Both the position numbers and the translations under genes were made by a program. A stretch of 64,000 nt of DNA. Source: Cryomorphaceae bacterium. Lineage in GTDB: Bacteria > Bacteroidota > Bacteroidia > Flavobacteriales_D > SKUL01. The stretch is taken from NCBI GenBank assembly GCA_007695365.1, contig REDV01000092.1, positions 4,844 to 68,843 on the forward strand. The letters are read 5' to 3'. This document shows positions 3,972 through 38,752 of the stretch, in pieces (position 1 is the first letter of the stretch; every line of letters begins with the position of its first letter). The notes beneath the pieces are model-generated. The model had not been told where the DNA came from. It ran no database searches and saw nothing but the letters and a program-made list of their open reading frames with translations.

Positions 3972-4937
3972 TCAACCAAAGAGGTAAGCCCCTGCATGCC
4001 GATTTATCCCAATCTCCGGATACTTCCAGTGAATTTCCCGATTGTCATCCGCAAACAGCGATTTGAATTTTTCCATGTCCGAAGGGGTCCATTCAACGGG
4101 CGTTTCTCCTCCTGAACCAGCCAGAATCCTGCGCTTCATCCGATGATAAATTCCCCTTCCCACGCGACTTTTTTCAGCCAGTGGATACCATCGGTTCAGC
4201 GCTCGAAGTTTCTTTGCCTGCCATTCATCCACACCCTGATTCAGGGGCTGCGTGGTCAAAATTTGTTCAAGAACCTTCTCATCCAGCTGATGCTCAAAAA
4301 TAGCTTCCAATCGCCTCAATACTTCCTGCGGATTGCTTTTAAAGTCCTCGTAGAGAAAAACCTCCACGCTTGGAAAAAGCGATTTGTACAATTTCACCAT
4401 AGGTAGATAGCGATACCCCGGGGCAAATTCGCAGGCGTGATAGGTGTCGAACTTCGCCCAGTCAAACAAATCAACCGCCGGCTGACTGCTGTAGCTTTCA
4501 GGTTGATAAACAGGTGATTCAAATCGAACAAAATCGTGGAGCGAGCACGTCTCCTTGTCTTGAAGCGCAATGAGATACATGGATTTCAGCAACTCCGGCT
4601 GGTTGCGCAAGAAGAGCAACACGGTGGAGTCTGGCATTGCCTGCTGAAGTCGAGTGGCAATTCTCGTCCGGTTGCCGTAATGCCAGTAGAGCGCCTGGCC
4701 TGCGAAGTTTTCGTTGCTCAAAAGCAAGGGTTGATTGCCATGGCTTTGCACCCAGCTTCGAAGCGCCGAAGGTTGGTAAGTGCTGTCATCCTCATACATC
4801 AGGTTTTGAAACAAGGGGTTAATCTGCGTAAAAGGCAATCCGACATAATTCAGCGCCCTGAACTCCGGAAAAACCACCCTCTGAAAAAAGGTAGTGGCCG
4901 TGCGCGGCATGCCGATATGAATGAAGTTTTTCGTCAC
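3972..4937 (-). CDS. sulfotransferase family protein
   Basis: The N-terminal IHIGMPRTATTFFQ resembles the PAPS 5'-phosphosulfate-binding loop of bacterial sulfotransferases. 321 aa ORF with no competing frame. Confidence 0.6.
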   Translation of the reverse strand: MTKNFIHIGMPRTATTFFQRVVFPEFRALNYVGLPFTQINPLFQNLMYEDDSTYQPSALRSWVQSHGNQPLLLSNENFAGQALYWHYGNRTRIATRLQQAMPDSTVLLFLRNQPELLKSMYLIALQDKETCSLHDFVRFESPVYQPESYSSQPAVDLFDWAKFDTYHACEFAPGYRYLPMVKLYKSLFPSVEVFLYEDFKSNPQEVLRRLEAIFEHQLDEKVLEQILTTQPLNQGVDEWQAKKLRALNRWYPLAEKSRVGRGIYHRMKRRILAGSGGETPVEWTPSDMEKFKSLFADDNREIHWKYPEIGINRHAGAYLFG

Positions 4938-4946
4938 CCCGTGGGA

Positions 4947-5141
4947 TTAGCCGTGTTTCACTTTGCGCACATCATAGGCGCTTTTTTTACTGTTTTCCTC
5001 ATGAATTTCAAACGATACACGGTCGTTCTTTTTAATGAGGTCAATCAAATCTCCTGCGTGAACATAAAGTTCCTCGCCTTCCCATTCAATAAATCCGAAG
5101 CATTTGGCGGTGTCGAAAAACTTTACTTTTCCGGTTGGCAT
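4947..5141 (-). CDS. cold-shock domain protein (CspA family)
   Basis: 64 aa. MPTGKVKFFDTAKCFGFIEWEGEELYVHAGDL matches the RNP1/RNP2 pattern (K-G-F-G-F-I, V-F-V-H) of cold-shock proteins. Confidence 0.9.
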   Translation of the reverse strand: MPTGKVKFFDTAKCFGFIEWEGEELYVHAGDLIDLIKKNDRVSFEIHEENSKKSAYDVRKVKHG

Positions 5142-5195
5142 AAGCCTTTTTATTTGGTGTGAAGTGACTACTTTGGTCTGCCAAAAGTAACGAAA

Positions 5196-5705
5196 ATGAA
5201 AAGCTGCTTTTACGGGGTGAAAACGGTACTGCTACTTCCTTTGGTACTGCTGTTTGCTTGCACGGCGCCCGAAGAGAAAAAAGCTGATGAACCGGCTGCA
5301 ACGGCTGTGCATCAGTTTAAAAAACTGGTGGGTGAGTGGGTAGATACCTCCTCACAGAACGCTTTTCATGAGGTTTGGAAACACACCGGTAAGGGCTGGC
5401 AAGGTACCGGTGTTGTGCTCGAAGGCCGGGATACCGTGTGGATAGAGCACCTTGAAATCGCCCCGCGGGCCAATCGCTGGTACTACGGAGTGACCCTCGG
5501 AGGTGCCAGTTTTAGCCGGCCGGTGTATTTTGAGCTTACTACTTTCTCAAACAATCACTTCCGTTTTGAGAATCCGCAGCATGATTTTCCGCAGCTTATT
5601 CATTACGAATTCAGAGGAGACGACTCACTGTACGTGCGCATTGAAGGAGTAGAGGCCGATACAGCCCGCTTCGAAGAGTTCTTTATGCGCCGCGCGGATA
5701 GCTGA
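5196..5705 (+). CDS. hypothetical lipoprotein (DUF6265-like)
   Basis: Signal peptide with lipobox LLFAC. 169 aa with Trp/Gly-rich beta-type composition. Confidence 0.55.
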   Translation: MKSCFYGVKTVLLLPLVLLFACTAPEEKKADEPAATAVHQFKKLVGEWVDTSSQNAFHEVWKHTGKGWQGTGVVLEGRDTVWIEHLEIAPRANRWYYGVTLGGASFSRPVYFELTTFSNNHFRFENPQHDFPQLIHYEFRGDDSLYVRIEGVEADTARFEEFFMRRADS

Positions 5706-5733
5706 ACGGCCGGGAAGATTGCCTTTGCGCCTT

Positions 5734-6696
5734 TCATTCACCAAAAGCCGCCCAATCTGCTTCTTTGTACCGGGCCTTGAGCGTGCGGTACAGGGTGTTG
5801 TGCTTCCTCTTATTGGCCTCATGATCCGGGCTGTCGGGCCAGTTGGGTCGGTGGTTTACGAACGACAGCAATGGCTGAAAATCCTTGATCCATTCACGGC
5901 TTTTTTTACTGAGTACCGACGCTGCAAAAGCCTCCCAAATGTATTGAACAGCGAGTTCGTTGGGGTGGAGCAAGTCGTCTGCGTAAAATCTGTAATCACG
6001 CAGGTCGTCCATCATAATCTCGTACGATGGAAAGTAGTGGGCTTGCTCTACTTCCTCCACCACGCGGTGCACTGCGGCAATCAGGTGTGATTTACTTCTG
6101 AGATTTCCCATGGCTCCGTCTCTCCAGTGCCTTACCGGACTTACCGATAACAGCACATGCAGGTGTGGGTGGGTTTTTTGAAGCAGCAACAGGCTTTTGG
6201 TTAGCTCTTTGGTGATTTCTTGCACCGATAAAAGGATGCGTTCAAACTCGTTTCCGGGAAGCCGGTGGCAATTGTTTACCAACTTTCCGGTTTTCTTGTG
6301 TTTCCAGGCATGGGCTGTTCCCAGGGTAATCATCAGCAACTTTCCGGAAATCAGCATCCTGCCCGCTCTTGAGAGACTCCGGTTGATTCCTGCCAGGCAT
6401 TGGTCCTTGTCGGGATGTGAAAAAACGCTGTAGTGGTCAAAACTGAAAAACAGTCCGCGGTGAAAAGTTAGCTCATGGGGTTTGTAAGGCGTAGGCGATT
6501 GCAGCTTTTCAACTTGTTGTGCAATGGAAACGGGGTTGAAGCTGGTTCCAAATGGATTCTCAGCTACCCTGAAAAGATGTTTTCTTAGTTGAGAAGCCAT
6601 GTGCTGGCTGAAACACGAACCCAGATGCACAATTCCCTCACCGGGCTCAAGGGCAAAAGGATACTTAGGGGCGTCAACAACTGTTCGGAAAATCAT
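5734..6696 (-). CDS. GSCFA domain protein
   Basis: Contains the HLGSCFSQH (GSCFA) motif near the N-terminus. Start moved to MIFRTVVDAPKYPF (track ORF extends to 6807). Confidence 0.75.
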   Translation of the reverse strand: MIFRTVVDAPKYPFALEPGEGIVHLGSCFSQHMASQLRKHLFRVAENPFGTSFNPVSIAQQVEKLQSPTPYKPHELTFHRGLFFSFDHYSVFSHPDKDQCLAGINRSLSRAGRMLISGKLLMITLGTAHAWKHKKTGKLVNNCHRLPGNEFERILLSVQEITKELTKSLLLLQKTHPHLHVLLSVSPVRHWRDGAMGNLRSKSHLIAAVHRVVEEVEQAHYFPSYEIMMDDLRDYRFYADDLLHPNELAVQYIWEAFAASVLSKKSREWIKDFQPLLSFVNHRPNWPDSPDHEANKRKHNTLYRTLKARYKEADWAAFGE

Positions 6697-33923: not shown

Positions 33924-34451
33924 ATGCACCAATCAATTGCTCCTCACTGGGAGAAGCTTACCCTTCTTAAAAACGAATGGATTGCTCAATTGGAAACCCT
34001 GCCTCAGGAGACTTGCTCGGCCCGGCTGGCTCAGGGGTGGAATATTCTGCAGGTTGTTGAGCACGTTATCACTTCCGAAACAGGTACATTGGGCTACATG
34101 AAAAAGAAAACAGCCGCCCCGTGGAGTGAAATACCATTGGCAAACGAAAATCATGTATCGAAAGGCAGGCAACTGAATGAAGCACTTAAATCTGAAAAAC
34201 GCTGGAAGGCCCCGGATGTGCTTCCGGATCCTACCGGGTCACAATCATTTGATAATATGGCGAAGTATTGGGATGGATTGCGTGGAGAGTATCAAGGATT
34301 CCTAAGCGACCTCGATCCTGCCTATTTCGAAAGAACCATCTTCAGACACCCCTATTCAGGCCCACTCGATTTGTACCATACACTGGATTTTCTGTGTAAC
34401 CACATTCTTCACCATCAGTATCAGGTAGAGAGGATTAAGGTGATGCTTTGA
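33924..34451 (+). CDS. DinB family protein
   Basis: 175 aa four-helix type. Has the conserved His pattern (VEHVITSE..., LCNHILHHQYQ). Confidence 0.75.
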   Translation: MHQSIAPHWEKLTLLKNEWIAQLETLPQETCSARLAQGWNILQVVEHVITSETGTLGYMKKKTAAPWSEIPLANENHVSKGRQLNEALKSEKRWKAPDVLPDPTGSQSFDNMAKYWDGLRGEYQGFLSDLDPAYFERTIFRHPYSGPLDLYHTLDFLCNHILHHQYQVERIKVML

Positions 34452-34485
34452 GCGGGTGCGCCGAACCTCACCACACTTATGAACT

Positions 34486-34570
34486 ATTGTTGACAACATA
34501 TGTTCAAACAATGTGAAAAACATCCATACGAAAAGTTTGCCTGGCCGAGGTTTTATACTGTCCTTTGACA
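34486..34570 (+). promoter_or_regulatory. upstream module copy 1: imperfect dyad ATTGTTGA-N9-TTCAAACAAT, ATGTGAAAA, AAAAGTTTG (-33-like), CCTTTGACA (-7-like TTTG)
   Basis: Same ordered blocks as 35018..35113. The two TTTG boxes are spaced 20 to 21 nt from the expected TAnn position, as in Bacteroidota sigma-A promoters. Confidence 0.4.
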
Positions 34571-34573
34571 CGC

Positions 34574-34952
34574 AAGTCAACGGATTTGTTGTCGGTTTTT
34601 CAAACCAGTTGAGTGTTTTGACATCGTGCCTTCTCAAGGGAAGGAACACCACGGAGGCAACTCCTGAAGTGAAGATGCTGCCCGGTGTAAGTCGGGTGAG
34701 TTGCAAGTTCGGTTCGCCGAAAAAGCAAAGTAACATTTGCGATTGCAGCGAAAGGAGCAGGGTTCGCAAGAACCTGTTCGCATACATGTCTTCGGACATT
34801 GGCGAAAGGCTTCAAAACACAACGCCAGATACGTAGAACTTCGGTTGGACGTTGAAGACAGTAGAAAAGATGATTTGTTCACTTTGCAAACTACGGTTTG
34901 CATGAGTGATGCGGGAGTCCGTTTCTTACGATTCGGACTCCCGTTTTTTTTT
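34574..34952 (+). ncRNA. candidate structured ncRNA A (about 380 nt, unassigned family)
   Basis: No credible ORF. Tetraloop hairpins: 34653..34664 GGAG-GCAA-CUCC; 34758..34776 with a GCAA loop; 34786..34799 AUGUC-UUCG-GACAU; 34832..34851 with a UUCG loop; 34886..34901 GCAAAC-UACG-GUUUGC. Ends in the terminator at 34912..34952. Confidence 0.45.
34912..34952 (+). terminator. strong intrinsic terminator
   Basis: CGGGAGUCCG-12 nt loop-CGGACUCCCG followed by U9. Confidence 0.85.
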
Positions 34953-35017
34953 GTCCGTTTTCGTCCATTACAAGAGTATAGTTGCTTGTTTTTAGCAGGC
35001 GGGAACAGGACCATTGA

Positions 35018-35113
35018 GTTGTTGACAATTGTTCATAACTCATGTGAAAACGAAGTGCAAAAACTCCAAAAGAAAAGTTTGGTAACTGGGCAGTAATTTC
35101 CCCACCTTTGACA
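35018..35113 (+). promoter_or_regulatory. upstream module copy 2: dyad GAGTTGTTGAC-N4-GTTCATAACTC, ATGTGAAAA, AAAAGTTTG, CCTTTGACA
   Basis: Block-for-block similarity to 34486..34570, about 532 bp downstream of copy 1. Confidence 0.4.
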
Positions 35114-35116
35114 TGT

Positions 35117-35570
35117 CAAACGAGAGATAGAAGCCGGTCGAACGAGATCGGAAACTCTGAAAAGGCAGGTGCAAACGGAAAGTCCTCCTCGCGGTTGCGG
35201 TTTTCTGTGCAAGGTTGAGTTCGGCAACGACTCAATGTCCTGTGGGAATGAGTAGCGAAACACAAGACTCACTTACTTCGGTGGCTGAGTTGAAAGGGAG
35301 TTAAATCCCCGTTGCGTTGCGAAGTTTCGTTCGTGAAAGCGACGAAGCATGTTCCCGGCGAAGCACACCAAGTTGAATATCCTCAGGGATGCTCATTGTG
35401 TGGTGTGTGTACCACGATGCAAATCGTCGCCGGTTTCAGAGTAGAATGGAAAGAGGCTTCCGGGCCGAATTCCGGGCTTCGAACGGTAGTTTGAAATCAG
35501 GTTGCGCTACGGTGCAGCCACGATTAACGGGAGCTATTTCGCAAGAAGTGGCTCCCGTTACTGTTTTATG
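35117..35570 (+). ncRNA. candidate structured ncRNA B (about 450 nt, unassigned family)
   Basis: Hairpins: 35134..35151; 35215..35235 (8 bp with a GCAA loop); 35267..35290 (UUCG loop); 35504..35515 (UACG loop). A long terminal hairpin at 35526..35559, AACGGGAGC...GCAA...GCUCCCGUU, is followed by ACUGUUUUA. Confidence 0.4.
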
Positions 35571-35617
35571 GAGTTAGCGAATAGGAAGAAAATTCAATCT
35601 GGTGGATGGCTGTGGGG

Positions 35618-38600
35618 CTATCGCAACACTGTAATGCTGCCCCTGAACTCATAGGTTTCAAGCGTAGCTGTGGAACCCACTTGCAGGTGATACACGTACA
35701 CTTCGTCCTGAGCATAGTATTTCCCAGATGTATCGCTCCCGTTCCATTTCAGTTCAGGATCGCTCGATTCAAAAACCAATTGCCCCCAGCGGTTGAAAAT
35801 GCGCAACCTGAAGTTACCAGGGTCAATACCCAATCCTTCAATGGAAAACAGGTCGTTGATCCCGTCTTCATTGGGTGTAAATGCGTTGGGGATATAGACG
35901 CTAAAATCATCGCGAACCACATAGTTGATGCATCGCTGATCGCTGCATCCCTCTTCCGACCACACCGTCAGGCAAACAGGATACACTCCGGGTTGCTGAT
36001 CAAAGGTGAGTACAGGATTGTTGATGCCAAAAGTACCCCACTCGCCAAAGTCCCACTCAAGTGAGTCGGCATTTAGACTTTGATTAAAAAACTGCACCTG
36101 TTCGTTGTAAATGGTAGATTCTTGAGGAGATGCTCTGAAATCGGCAATTACAGGCGGAAGTACTTCAAGGTGATGATTCACAATGCTGTCGCAGCCATTG
36201 CTGGCAGGAAATATCTGAATGTAGGTGCCGGAGCTGGTGTAGTTGTTCAATCCAATGGTGTAAACGTCACCGTCGCAAATCTCGGCAAAAACATCCGTCA
36301 ATACATTGGGCGTGATAGTGAGCGTAAGTGTAGCACTCACCTCACAACCCCAAACGTTGAAACCTTCGTGCTGATACACCCCACTTTCCGTGTAGGCAGT
36401 TCCAAACCATGTATAGCTGCCGCACGCGCTTATCTCCGAAGTGATGTCTTCTGAGAAGTTAATGGTCAGGTCGAGAATAATGGTGCTGTCGCAGCCTGCT
36501 TCATTGCTCAATACAACCGAATGCACGCCACTTTGCACATAGGTTTCTCCGTTCAGCGGCCAGGTATAACCATCGCACTCTGAAATTTCCAGCACTGTTT
36601 CGCTGGCCTGTAAAACTTCCAAAGTGAGTGTTGCAGGCTCACTACAACCTTCGCCCGAAGGTGTGAACGTGTAAGTTGTTGTTTGCAGATTATTGATGGC
36701 CGGAGACCAGGAGCCAGCTACACCATTTATTGAAGTCACAGGCAGGGCAGGAATATCATCACCTGCACAAAAAGGCCCTTGCACATCGAAAAGAGGTATT
36801 ACGGTTTCTTCTATTTCTATGGTCAATGTTGTGGCAGTAGCACATTCACTCCCGGTAGGGGTAAAAGTGTAGGTGGTTGTTTCTGCATTGTTTAGGGCAG
36901 GAGACCAACTGCCGGAAAATCCGTTCAGGGATGTGGTTGGCAGAGCCGGTATATTCGCACCCTGACAGAAGGGACCCACATCAGCAAATTCAGGTTCTGT
37001 TGGTGCAGCAATCTCGATGGTAAGCGAAGTTTGAGATGCACATTGCCCCGCGCCGGGGGTAAAGGTGTAGCTGGTAGTTGCTGTGTTGTTCACTGCCGGC
37101 GACCAGGTTCCTGTAATTCCATTGTTGGAAGTGGTAGGCAAAGCAGGAATGTCAGCACCCTCGCACCAGGTGTCGGGTTCGTCAAAAAGTGGAGTGGTTT
37201 CGGGGCTAATTATTATATCAACCGTAGTTGACTCTGCGCATTGCCCCGGGTCGGGAGTGAAGGTGTAGGTAGTGGTTGCGGTATTGTTAACGGCAGGAGC
37301 CCATGAGCCGGTAATGCCATCGTTGCTAATAGCGGGCAGAGGGGGAATATCAGAACCCACACAATACGCCGGCGGTGGTGTAAAGGAAGGAGTAGTTTCG
37401 GGCTCAATTTCAATGACAAGCGTTGTATTCACAGCGCACTGATCCGGGTCAGGCGTAAAAGTATAGGTGGTGGTTGCCGTGTTGTTGATGACTGGTGCCC
37501 AGTTGCCGGTAATGCCATTGTTGGAGCTTGTGGGCAAGTCCGGAATATCCGAACCCGTGCAAAAAGGGCCTGCCTCATCGAATACGGGTTCTATTTCGGT
37601 GTCGATTACAACCTCCAAAGTAGTGGTGGTTGCACATTGACCCGCGTTGGGGGTGAAGGTATAGGTAGTGGTTGTTGTGTTGTTCATCGCGGGCGCCCAG
37701 GTTCCGGTAACACCGTTATTAGAGGTGGTTGGCAGCGCAGGGATGTCCGAGCCAAGACAATAAGGCCCTGCAGCACTGAATGCAGGCTCCTGTGCCTCTA
37801 CAATGGTTACAGTGGTCTGGGCAGTCACTTCTTCGCAACTACCAAAAGCCGGTATGGTATAGGTGATGGTGTATGTGCCTCCTGAGCTTTGGTCGGGAGT
37901 AATTTGACCGTTGCCGGGGTTGATGGCAAGGCCGCCCGGTTCGGCTGTGAAGGTGCCGCCTGTAAAGTTTTCAGTGCCTTCCAGAACTACGTCCTGAGGA
38001 GGTGCTTCTGACGCACAGAGTTCGGTGTCGGGATAACTAATAGTGGCGGTAGGGCAGGGATCTACGGTTGCCCCCACAAAATAGGGGCAGTGCAGGCTGT
38101 GCGTGCAGCCAAATGGAACGTTAAAGGTGTAGCAGAAAACATATGAGTTTCCCGGTACTACCGGCGAAAAGGTCAGGCTCGTCAGTGAACCGGTTTGAAT
38201 CGGTGCCCCGCACGTGATGTCGTATAGCGCCCAGGAAAAGTTCGTAACATTTCCCGCGCCGCAATCTGAGGTGATGATGACGTTGAAGCTCACGCTGGTT
38301 ACTGTGGCTGTAAAAGAGTTGCAGAAAGTGTTGAGTGAGCCTGAGGCCAATGGAGGAAAAAACTCAGGAGTTTCACAGTCTTCTACCACTTGTGGAATGG
38401 TGGGCTCAGTTGCATAGCCCAATGCATCGCCGCAAGGATCTTCACAAGTTGGGCAGAGCTGATTGTCGCCACCGCCACCTCCACCCGACAGACAGTTAAC
38501 GCAAGCAGGGTTAGTGGCTGCAATGCCAGCGCAAATAGCATCCCACGTTGTGACGCAACAGAATATGTCAACAGCGCAAACAGCAGTTTGACAAAGTATG

Positions 38601-38752
38601 TCGGACGGAAAGCCTGCCCCGGTCTGAGCTTGGTCGCAAAAAGGTTGCGCCTGCACATGATTCACGCTAACCGTTGCAATGCTTAATAGCATAGCCGCCA
38701 GCACGTTGCGGAGAGAAGCAAAGCTAAGTATTGAAAATTCAAACAGTTGCAC
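35618..38752 (-). CDS. large surface protein: Cys-rich N-module, six 66-aa repeats, three CDS-type repeats, PKD-like domain, T9SS type B CTD
   Basis: C-terminal FSVYIPNAFTPNEDGINDLFSI...LRIFNRWGQLVF...GSITVLR. Shares a 30-nt near-identical stretch of CTD DNA with 27194..30709. Confidence 0.88.
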   Translation of the reverse strand: MQLFEFSILSFASLRNVLAAMLLSIATVSVNHVQAQPFCDQAQTGAGFPSDILCQTAVCAVDIFCCVTTWDAICAGIAATNPACVNCLSGGGGGGDNQLCPTCEDPCGDALGYATEPTIPQVVEDCETPEFFPPLASGSLNTFCNSFTATVTSVSFNVIITSDCGAGNVTNFSWALYDITCGAPIQTGSLTSLTFSPVVPGNSYVFCYTFNVPFGCTHSLHCPYFVGATVDPCPTATISYPDTELCASEAPPQDVVLEGTENFTGGTFTAEPGGLAINPGNGQITPDQSSGGTYTITYTIPAFGSCEEVTAQTTVTIVEAQEPAFSAAGPYCLGSDIPALPTTSNNGVTGTWAPAMNNTTTTTYTFTPNAGQCATTTTLEVVIDTEIEPVFDEAGPFCTGSDIPDLPTSSNNGITGNWAPVINNTATTTYTFTPDPDQCAVNTTLVIEIEPETTPSFTPPPAYCVGSDIPPLPAISNDGITGSWAPAVNNTATTTYTFTPDPGQCAESTTVDIIISPETTPLFDEPDTWCEGADIPALPTTSNNGITGTWSPAVNNTATTSYTFTPGAGQCASQTSLTIEIAAPTEPEFADVGPFCQGANIPALPTTSLNGFSGSWSPALNNAETTTYTFTPTGSECATATTLTIEIEETVIPLFDVQGPFCAGDDIPALPVTSINGVAGSWSPAINNLQTTTYTFTPSGEGCSEPATLTLEVLQASETVLEISECDGYTWPLNGETYVQSGVHSVVLSNEAGCDSTIILDLTINFSEDITSEISACGSYTWFGTAYTESGVYQHEGFNVWGCEVSATLTLTITPNVLTDVFAEICDGDVYTIGLNNYTSSGTYIQIFPASNGCDSIVNHHLEVLPPVIADFRASPQESTIYNEQVQFFNQSLNADSLEWDFGEWGTFGINNPVLTFDQQPGVYPVCLTVWSEEGCSDQRCINYVVRDDFSVYIPNAFTPNEDGINDLFSIEGLGIDPGNFRLRIFNRWGQLVFESSDPELKWNGSDTSGKYYAQDEVYVYHLQVGSTATLETYEFRGSITVLR
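36599..37789 (-). repeat. six tandem 66 to 67 aa repeats, consensus P-x-F-x4-P-x-C-x-G-x-D-I-P-A-L-P-T-T-S-N-N-G-I-T-G-x-W-x-P-A-x-N-N-T-x-T-T-T-Y-T-F-T-P-x3-Q-C-A
   Basis: Counted in the translation, aa 322..718. The period is about 198 bp. Confidence 0.88.

Follow-up and report, generated by a model that had tools for sequence, protein, structure and literature searches.

The window analyzed here (the whole stretch of 64,000 nucleotides (nt) from contig REDV01000092.1) belongs to a metagenome-assembled genome (MAG) of Cryomorphaceae (Flavobacteriales), as indicated by the source's own name on the DinB protein. It contains a gene-free gap bounded on the 5′ side by the stop codon of a DinB_2-family gene (33924-34451, + strand) and on the 3′ side by the stop codon, at 35618, of a convergent CHU_C/T9SS adhesin gene (35618-38752, − strand). 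Two tandem RNA units, A (34572-34952, approximately 380 nt) and B (35115-35567, approximately 450 nt), both on the + strand, are housed in this gap, and RNA A is the main subject of this analysis. Judged from its conservation edges, fold z-score, excess of tetraloops and consensus fold, RNA A is very probably a real, independently transcribed structured RNA gene.

Between 34451 and 35618, no gene had been called in any of three independent assemblies, one of them near-identical to the window (L001, 99.98% identity) and two from a sister lineage (L002 and L003, DinB protein 81% identical), and the open reading frames (ORFs) of the gap had no match in Pfam. These results agree with the preliminary description of the window, in which the gap was said to hold only short ORFs of implausible composition.

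Conservation and fold of RNA A

Identity to L002 was 93.4% for RNA A and 87.2% for RNA B, 74-79% for the two upstream elements and 45-60% for the promoter spacers and flanks (45% for the spacer between DinB and the first element). The protein genes were 80.5% (dinB), 77% (adhesin), 84% (M43 peptidase) and 87% (phoH) identical. Measured in this way, purifying selection on RNA A exceeds that on the adjacent protein genes. The edges of conservation were abrupt relative to the sister lineage, starting at the Bacteroidetes −7 box and ending at the U-run, a profile that reads as the footprint of a transcribed, selected RNA. The high identity, the sharp edges and the lack of a coding signal (see below) all support the proposal, already made in the preliminary description, of a folded functional RNA rather than decayed coding sequence.

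Seven hairpins with a GNRA or UNCG loop and a stem of at least 4 bp were found in 34572-34952 (+), against 0.72 ± 0.83 expected, and none of 1000 dinucleotide shuffles reached this number. The loops were GCAA (first loop base at 34657 and 34766), GUAA (34687), UUCG (34713, 34791 and 34840) and UACG (34892). The earlier count of at least five such hairpins holds. When 381-nt windows were slid over the whole 64 kb, the region 34551-35301 of the + strand was the sole one with at least five such hairpins, and no − strand window had more than two.

RNA A ends in a predicted Rho-independent terminator (34911-34952, +), in which a GC-rich stem-loop is followed by a run of U residues. The arms (34911-34921 and 34934-34944) form 11 pairs, 10 Watson-Crick and one G-U, around a 12-nt loop, and U9 occupies 34944-34952; the 10-bp GC-rich stem and U9 first described were confirmed in this form. 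The terminator was 100% identical in L002 and L003. It was overlooked by a consensus terminator scan because of the length of its loop.

On the + strand, RNA A reached a minimum free energy of −134.1 kcal/mol, 17 kcal/mol better than the −117 kcal/mol of the − strand; the z-scores were −4.55 (+) and −5.3 (−). The z-scores therefore do not choose between strands, and the assignment was made from the promoter, the terminator, the types of loop and the G-U pairs. The consensus fold of the three sequences (RNAalifold) contained 125 pairs, with 98.9% of cells paired, and approximately 65% of the nucleotides of RNA A lie in predicted helices. In this fold, helix P1 joins GCAAGUCA (34572-34579) to UGAUUUGU (34871-34878), and helix P2a joins UUUGUUGUC (34585-34593) to GACAGUAGA (34857-34865); two substitutions in the 3′ strand of P2a (A to G and U to C) preserved pairing. 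The predicted folds also include a penultimate hairpin, CACUUUGCAAAC-UACG-GUUUGCAUGAGUG (34879-34909), with one double compensation from G-C to A-U in L002 and L003 (columns 317/332). Over the whole of RNA A, double compensations numbered two (34762/34773 and 34886/34901), accompanied by nine wobble-compatible single changes and four breaks.

The promoter module and unit B

Upstream of RNA A lies a control element (34477-34514, +) that is shared with unit B and with approximately 36 RNA genes of Bacteroidota. At 34477-34496 it has the imperfect palindrome TTATGAAC-TATT-GTTGACAA, which is followed by a third half-site at 34501-34509 (TGTTCAAAC) and by GT at 34513-34514. DnaA boxes are an improbable reading of these half-sites, both of which consistently carry A where the DnaA box consensus has C. 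The element is followed by a putative sigma-A-type promoter (34536-34567), with a −33 TTTG at 34536-34539, a 20-nt spacer and the −7 box GTCCTTTG at 34560-34567. The sigma-A consensus of Bacteroidetes is TTTG at approximately −33 and TAnnTTTG at −7 (PMC7366714); the −7 box of A, offset by 77 from the start of the element, lacks the TA. We place the start of RNA A at 34572-34575 and its 3′ end at the U-run, and the start proposed earlier, 34574, agrees with this, lying 7 nt past the −7 box. The palindrome would then be centered at approximately −87 and the third half-site at approximately −69.

The complete module, approximately 95 nt long, has the order palindrome (general form TTATNAAC-AATT-GTTNATAA), third half-site TGTKNAAAC, A-tract immediately upstream of −33, −33 TTTG, 20-21-nt spacer and −7 box nnCCTTTG. 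By sequence match to the module of A, that of RNA B was located at 35019-35110 (+), with the palindrome at 35019-35038, the third half-site at 35044-35052, the −33 TTTG at 35078-35081 and the −7 box CACCTTTG at 35103-35110. The two units have 75% identity over 57 nt upstream (34483-34539 vs. 35025-35081), and CCTTTGACA is identical in both. The upstream element ACNATTGTTNANAAC-N3-TGTNNAAAC, present in unit A at 34483-34509, was found in the 64-kb window at three or fewer mismatches solely at the two RNA promoters.

RNA B was delimited by its fold (z = −6.2), the terminator scan and a covariance model of the 3′ module (described below). Its P1 pairs GUCAAAC (35115-35121) with GUUUGA(A) (35489-35495), and its P2a pairs GAAGCC (35130-35135) with GGCUUC (35475-35480); J1/2 is GAGAGAUA (35122-35129) and J2/1 is GAACGGUA (35481-35488). 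A penultimate UACG hairpin and a 16-pair terminator (35525-35560) follow, and four double compensations separate RNA B from the sister lineage. With all the features of the family, RNA B is by its predicted structure a canonical member.

Besides the promoter module, features common to both units are the 5′ sequence (GUCAAC-G for A and GUCAAACG for B), an ACAGUAG located approximately 90 nt before the 3′ end, a UACG-capped penultimate hairpin and a CGGGAG terminator; the terminator of A begins GCGGGAG, and the terminator stem of the family starts GGGA. In A, the ACAGUA motif of the family lies in the 3′ strand of P2a and pairs with UUUGUUGUC, so the conserved internal loop, whose 5′ side reads ACGGAUUUG in A, is gone, whereas B retains it. 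The motif becomes ACGGCA in L002 and L003, with pairing retained. The predicted closing helix of A, GCAAGUCA/UGAUUUGU, is invariant in the three sequences and is displaced by 6 nt from the motif. Alignment of 34470-34960 with 35005-35580 gave no convincing similarity between the bodies of A and B. We consider it highly probable that RNA A is a paralogue within a family defined by its promoter, and it is best read as a divergent paralogue of B. In addition, a 15-nt part of the penultimate hairpin of A (CAAACUACGGUU, 34884-34898) showed 87% complementarity to the J2/1-P1 region of B (AACGGUAGUUUG, 35482-35496). These nucleotides are invariant in the sister lineage, and the complementarity may reflect a contact between A and B or be left over from a shared origin.

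Related RNA genes across Bacteroidia

One genome for each of 185,579 species was scanned with the pattern ACNATTGTTNANAACNNNTGTNNAAAC, whose 19 fixed bases are the positions common to four promoter copies, as derived from the window. The scan returned 43 loci, approximately 36 of them in Bacteroidota (labeled Bacteroidales, Rikenellaceae, Porphyromonadaceae, Prolixibacteraceae, Tangfeifania, Sphingobacteriia, Flavobacteriales, Flavobacteriaceae and Cryomorphaceae). The remaining matches (Paenibacillus, archaea, Marinimicrobia and a locus labeled Saprospiraceae, L011) lie inside coding sequence and look like chance. A 593-nt contig of an Aliidiomarina MAG (L039, NZ_JBLRWZ010000089.1) clearly carries a member of the family, as it contains the element together with a TACTTTTG box and ACCAGGCAAGGGAUAAAAGG; the presence of this member in a gammaproteobacterial MAG is probably due to a binning contaminant from a Bacteroidota genome. 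No element was found in a scan of 2.9 M viral contigs.

At every family locus, the element, present once per locus, extended into a fuller palindrome with the consensus gTTATtAACAATTGTTaAtAAC. A TAnnTTTG box was located 77-78 nt downstream of the element start in all family promoters (39/39), and where a −33 TTG was found, the −33/−7 spacer was mostly 19-21 nt. Downstream of each element lay a terminator-ended RNA of approximately 320-900 nt. Canonical members start with ACCAGGU-GAGCGAUAAAAGG and end with AAUAAC-N-GUA-ACCUGG, followed by a UUCG, UACG or GNRA hairpin, GAAAU, a terminator stem GGGAA...UUCCC and a U-rich sequence. They carry a conserved internal loop, GAGNGAUA on the 5′ strand and AACNGUA on the 3′ strand.

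The first nucleotides of the family RNAs pair with the strand just after GUA, approximately 90 nt from the 3′ end. This helix, P1, varied among members (CCAGG/CCUGG, GCAGG/CCUGC, UCGGG/CCCGA, CCAAG/CUUGG, UCAAAC/GUUUGA, GUCGAU/AUCGAC and GUUGUUC/GAAUGAC) and covaried: 95% of cells were paired, five of the six pairs had changes on both sides and none of 500 shuffles matched it, whereas slid controls were at most 45% paired. The covariation of P1 implies that one RNA molecule spans the distance from promoter to terminator. These data show a family across Bacteroidia that is defined by the phased palindrome and half-site, a covarying helix, a penultimate tetraloop hairpin and a GGGA terminator stem.

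A covariance model of the 3′ module was built from 27 members, with the window and its sister lineage left out. In the 64-kb window it matched only B (35472-35569; 46.5 bits, E 9.5e-9) and A. It gave one match per canonical locus searched and two in L020, a locus with three units. This locus (CAZNOG010000015.1, a Cryomorphaceae MAG; reverse complement, approximately 4437-6220) contains three tandem units, each with its own palindrome and promoter, and their terminators are near-identical (GGCGGACCAAATCG.AAGATTTCGTCCGCC).

A third body type under the same promoter was found in marine Flavobacteriales. These RNAs of approximately 650 nt have the same promoter as A, agree with it over the first 10 nt (GUCAACGGAU) and begin GUCAACGGAUGGGAACAUCCACGGAG; their body and 3′ end are different, they lack the 3′ module and the model gave no match in their loci (the L029 type). 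They occur in genomes (L029, L031 and L037) and in metagenomes (L051, L053, L055, L060, L063, L075, L077 and L078). In the loci of more distant DinB homologues (L004-L006), synteny was lost and an RNA match was absent.

The neighbors of the family RNAs vary between lineages. One clade of Bacteroidales had the fixed order rpsK-rpsD-rpoA-rplQ-eno-[RNA]-ubiD-like decarboxylase (L014, L018, L019, L022, L023, L032, L035, L045 and L047). In the one of these loci that was inspected, L019, the ubiD-like gene downstream is preceded by its own −7 box, so the family RNA is not a leader there. Just upstream of the RNA promoter, a gene resembling sigma-54-type AAA+ activators was observed in three of the approximately 36 loci (L007, at −1491 to −36 relative to the element, L028 and L041); such an activator as the linked transcription factor was dropped as a general explanation, being present in these three loci only, although it is a candidate regulator. 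Directly after the RNA terminator, tandem or REP-like repeats were seen in some loci (GCTCACCCGTTTATCTCCCG, approximately six times, in L045; the GTGACTCGTGAATC type in L038 and L044; GTCATCCCCGCGAAAGCGGGGACCGCGA in L036).

Interpretation and alternative explanations

We propose, with a probability of roughly 0.6, that a non-coding RNA of approximately 380 nt with a compact fold is encoded by its own gene at 34572-34952 (+), is the first of two tandem paralogues and would act in trans under a dedicated factor. The palindrome and extra half-site would be bound by a transcription factor that acts as a dimer, serves these RNA genes specifically and contacts RNA polymerase. The absence of the consensus TA from the −7 boxes of the window suggests dependence on an activator. 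The RNAs would function in trans as protein-binding or scaffold RNAs, in a manner reminiscent of RsmY/Z driven by GacA or of 6S RNA, being neither cis-regulators nor antisense RNAs, and RNA A may have been sub- or neo-functionalized after duplication. The specific model of a protein-binding RNA under transcription-factor control is tentative and, taken alone, rather doubtful. The enriched interior k-mers (CGCAAG, CUUCGG, CGAAAG and CCGGAA) are tetraloops with their closing pairs; together with loops of the GNRA and UNCG type, they favor a compact scaffold over a simple sponge.

Several results weigh against this proposal. The covariation of RNA A by itself was not significant, being equaled by 55 of 500 shuffles of the three sequences; the proof of covariation is provided by P1 in the wider family. 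The match of the 3′-module model to A was marginal (34854-34954, 16.3 bits, E 0.076). Among A-like 5′ ends in a metagenome scan, 8 of 36 were genuine, all of the 650-nt type, and with no new A-type sequences the covariation of A itself stays underpowered. A search of all loci with the A and B alignments (nhmmer) gave no homologue of either body outside its own lineage; considered with the tandem units of L020 and the 650-nt body type, this indicates that the promoter outlives the body. The start site, promoter activity and trans role of RNA A are read from sequence. No candidate for the transcription factor or a protein partner was found, and no gene was consistently adjacent across the family loci. 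Finally, the enriched k-mers are not an obvious single-stranded binding motif; they speak for a compact tertiary fold, and their support for a sponge is weak.

It is unlikely that the family is instead a housekeeping ribonucleoprotein or catalytic RNA, essential like RNase P RNA, signal recognition particle (SRP) RNA or transfer-messenger RNA (tmRNA), with the element serving as a growth-rate-type promoter enhancer and not as an operator. Such a role would fit the wide spread of the family, its single copy beside rpsK-rpsD-rpoA-rplQ-eno in many Bacteroidales, the conserved internal loop beside a covarying closing helix, the many GNRA- and UNCG-capped helices, which are typical of compact tertiary folds, and the A-tract just upstream of −33. 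However, the bodies diverge past nhmmer detection between genera and range from 320 to 900 nt, the number of paralogues varies from 1 to 3, and unit A and the L029-type RNAs lack the conserved loop, the 3′ module or both, which would be unusual for an essential catalytic core. A conserved promoter, fast-diverging bodies and a variable number of paralogues are closer to the pattern of Rsm RNAs under Gac control than to that of a catalytic housekeeping RNA.

Unit A could also be a regulatory small RNA that base-pairs with mRNAs through an exposed seed, as its stand-alone gene with its own promoter and terminator would allow, and a primary-sequence identity of 93.4% is more than secondary structure alone demands. 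We consider this quite improbable, as most of the molecule lies in predicted helices with stable tetraloops, 380 nt is far above the typical length of seed-type RNAs and no conserved single-stranded stretch was identified. The loss of the conserved internal-loop sequences and the marginal 3′-module score might be expected of a decaying duplicate of B, an RNA pseudogene without a function of its own. Nevertheless, A is more conserved than B and than all flanking genes, it retains an intact control element, intact −33 and −7 boxes and an intact terminator, and its helix substitutions keep pairing, which makes such decay very improbable.

A small protein, encoded by a 53-amino-acid (aa) ORF (34675-34836, +) or a 105-aa ORF (−) with the hairpins being incidental, has hardly any probability. 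Several frames remain open in all three assemblies, but on both strands, as expected at 7% divergence; no gene was called and no Pfam domain matched. Codon-periodic substitutions, the pattern that would have spoken for a protein in the preliminary description, were not seen in the only preserved small ORF: this best candidate, of 53 aa, had 4, 3 and 7 substitutions at codon positions 1, 2 and 3, a weak bias, and in L002 and L003 had lost its stop codon and undergone a radical change from SNI to MKV. The constraints on the family, moreover, are at the RNA level (covariation of P1, bracketing by promoter and terminator). Equally remote is a cis element, whether the 3′ untranslated region of DinB, a downstream leader or an antisense RNA to the adhesin, since the position of A directly 3′ of DinB on the same strand and facing the 3′ end of the adhesin gene is offset by its own promoter module and terminator, the unconserved DinB-element spacer, an end of B (approximately 35567) that falls short of the adhesin stop at 35618 without overlap, and the unrelated contexts of the family in other lineages. 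The terminator of A is followed by RNA B and then by the convergent gene, in agreement with the earlier remark that no same-strand gene lies downstream for regulation in cis.

RNA A belongs to a known kind, the stand-alone structured bacterial RNA of unknown function, and the family itself appears to be new. At gathering thresholds Rfam 15 gave no match in the 64-kb window, and at E ≤ 10 the gap returned nothing but noise, in line with the initial impression of an RNA outside the known families. The unmatched families include 6S, 6S-Flavo, RNase P, tmRNA, SRP, OLE, ROOL, GOLLD, raiA, HEARO, Flavo-1, Bacteroidales-1 and Bacteroides-1/2. Only tRNAs were found in 18 family loci, only noise in one canonical member and no match for the 650-nt L029-type RNA. 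In the literature, of which our coverage is incomplete so that an earlier description is possible, we found none of this RNA or palindrome. Two subjects of 2026 preprints, the ncRNA (non-coding RNA) arrays of UG27 reverse transcriptases and a Bacteroidota element linked to uS2/uS9, are different things.

One of the closest likenesses is to RsmY/RsmZ/RsmX and CsrB/CsrC, which are also stand-alone RNA genes with a strong terminator and multiple, sometimes tandem, paralogues, and in which a phased palindromic upstream sequence is better conserved than the body and bodies vary between genera. Unlike these RNAs, the present family has GNRA and UNCG loops, with no A(N)GGA motifs in the loops of RNA A from the tetraloop scan, a conserved closing helix with an internal loop, and a palindrome unrelated to the GacA box; the enriched k-mers that contain GGA (CCGGAA and CGGAAG) fit GGAA tetraloops. 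To our knowledge, Bacteroidota have no CsrA.

OLE, ROOL, GOLLD and raiA resemble the family in their length of hundreds of nt, many GNRA-looped helices, independent transcription and unassigned function. The family differs from them in having no Rfam match, a range within Bacteroidia and a dedicated conserved operator, which is not described for those RNAs. Unlike ROOL and GOLLD, it shows no sign of phage association, as judged from the viral contigs, and, unlike OLE, it is not consistently linked to a protein gene.

RNase P RNA (bacterial type A) is of similar length (approximately 380-450 nt), and motifs in canonical members of the family look superficially like its own (GAGCCGAAGUCCGG vs. 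GAGGAAAGUCCGG and ACAGUAACC vs. ACAGAACCC), but its model gave no match even at E ≤ 10, and a separate RNase P RNA is present in F. psychrophilum and B. thetaiotaomicron. A pairing like P4 of RNase P was rejected, as the partner of the ACCUGG segment is the 5′ end (in P1) and not the GUCCGG segment, with which P4 would require it to pair. The 6S RNA and Ms1 are likewise stand-alone RNAs of an abundant type with a 5′/3′ closing helix, and paralogues are known (6S-1 and 6S-2); the family differs in its multi-branched, short, capped hairpins, which contrast with a long irregular helix with a central bubble, and did not match the 6S or 6S-Flavo models. Bacteroidetes already have a validated 6S RNA (PMC7366714, PMC9723704).

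The chances are about even that A and B belong to an undescribed family of 320-900 nt in the class Bacteroidia, with a dedicated operator, that forms the RNA arm of a regulatory circuit or a ribonucleoprotein. The family might correspond in function to Gac/Rsm or 6S; alternatively, it might constitute a new ornate RNA assembly. We know of no Hfq, ProQ or CsrA in the phylum Bacteroidota, nor, in Bacteroidia, of Shine-Dalgarno-led initiation or classical RNA chaperones. Bacteroidia dominate polysaccharide turnover in the gut and the sea, and their RNA biology is poorly charted. A family of large, heavily structured RNAs conserved from Bacteroidales to Flavobacteriales would, if real, extend the short list of widespread bacterial RNAs with unassigned function, which rarely gains members. 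Its promoter module is recognizable across orders, and a dedicated promoter-operator module of this span is unusual. The palindrome could be used as bait for the transcription factor, the RNA ends are defined for pull-downs and cryo-electron microscopy, and cultivable carriers appear to exist among relatives of Prolixibacteraceae and Tangfeifania. In the tandem pair, the bodies would have diverged after duplication while the promoter stayed unchanged, which provides a natural experiment for learning what parts of the RNA are important.

Outside the gap, the convergent adhesin gene (35618-38752, −) encodes approximately six tandem repeats of approximately 70 aa each (...SNNGITGTWAPAVNNTATTTYTFTP...) before a CHU_C/T9SS type-B C-terminal domain. 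These repeats cross-hybridize, with 66-69% DNA identity.

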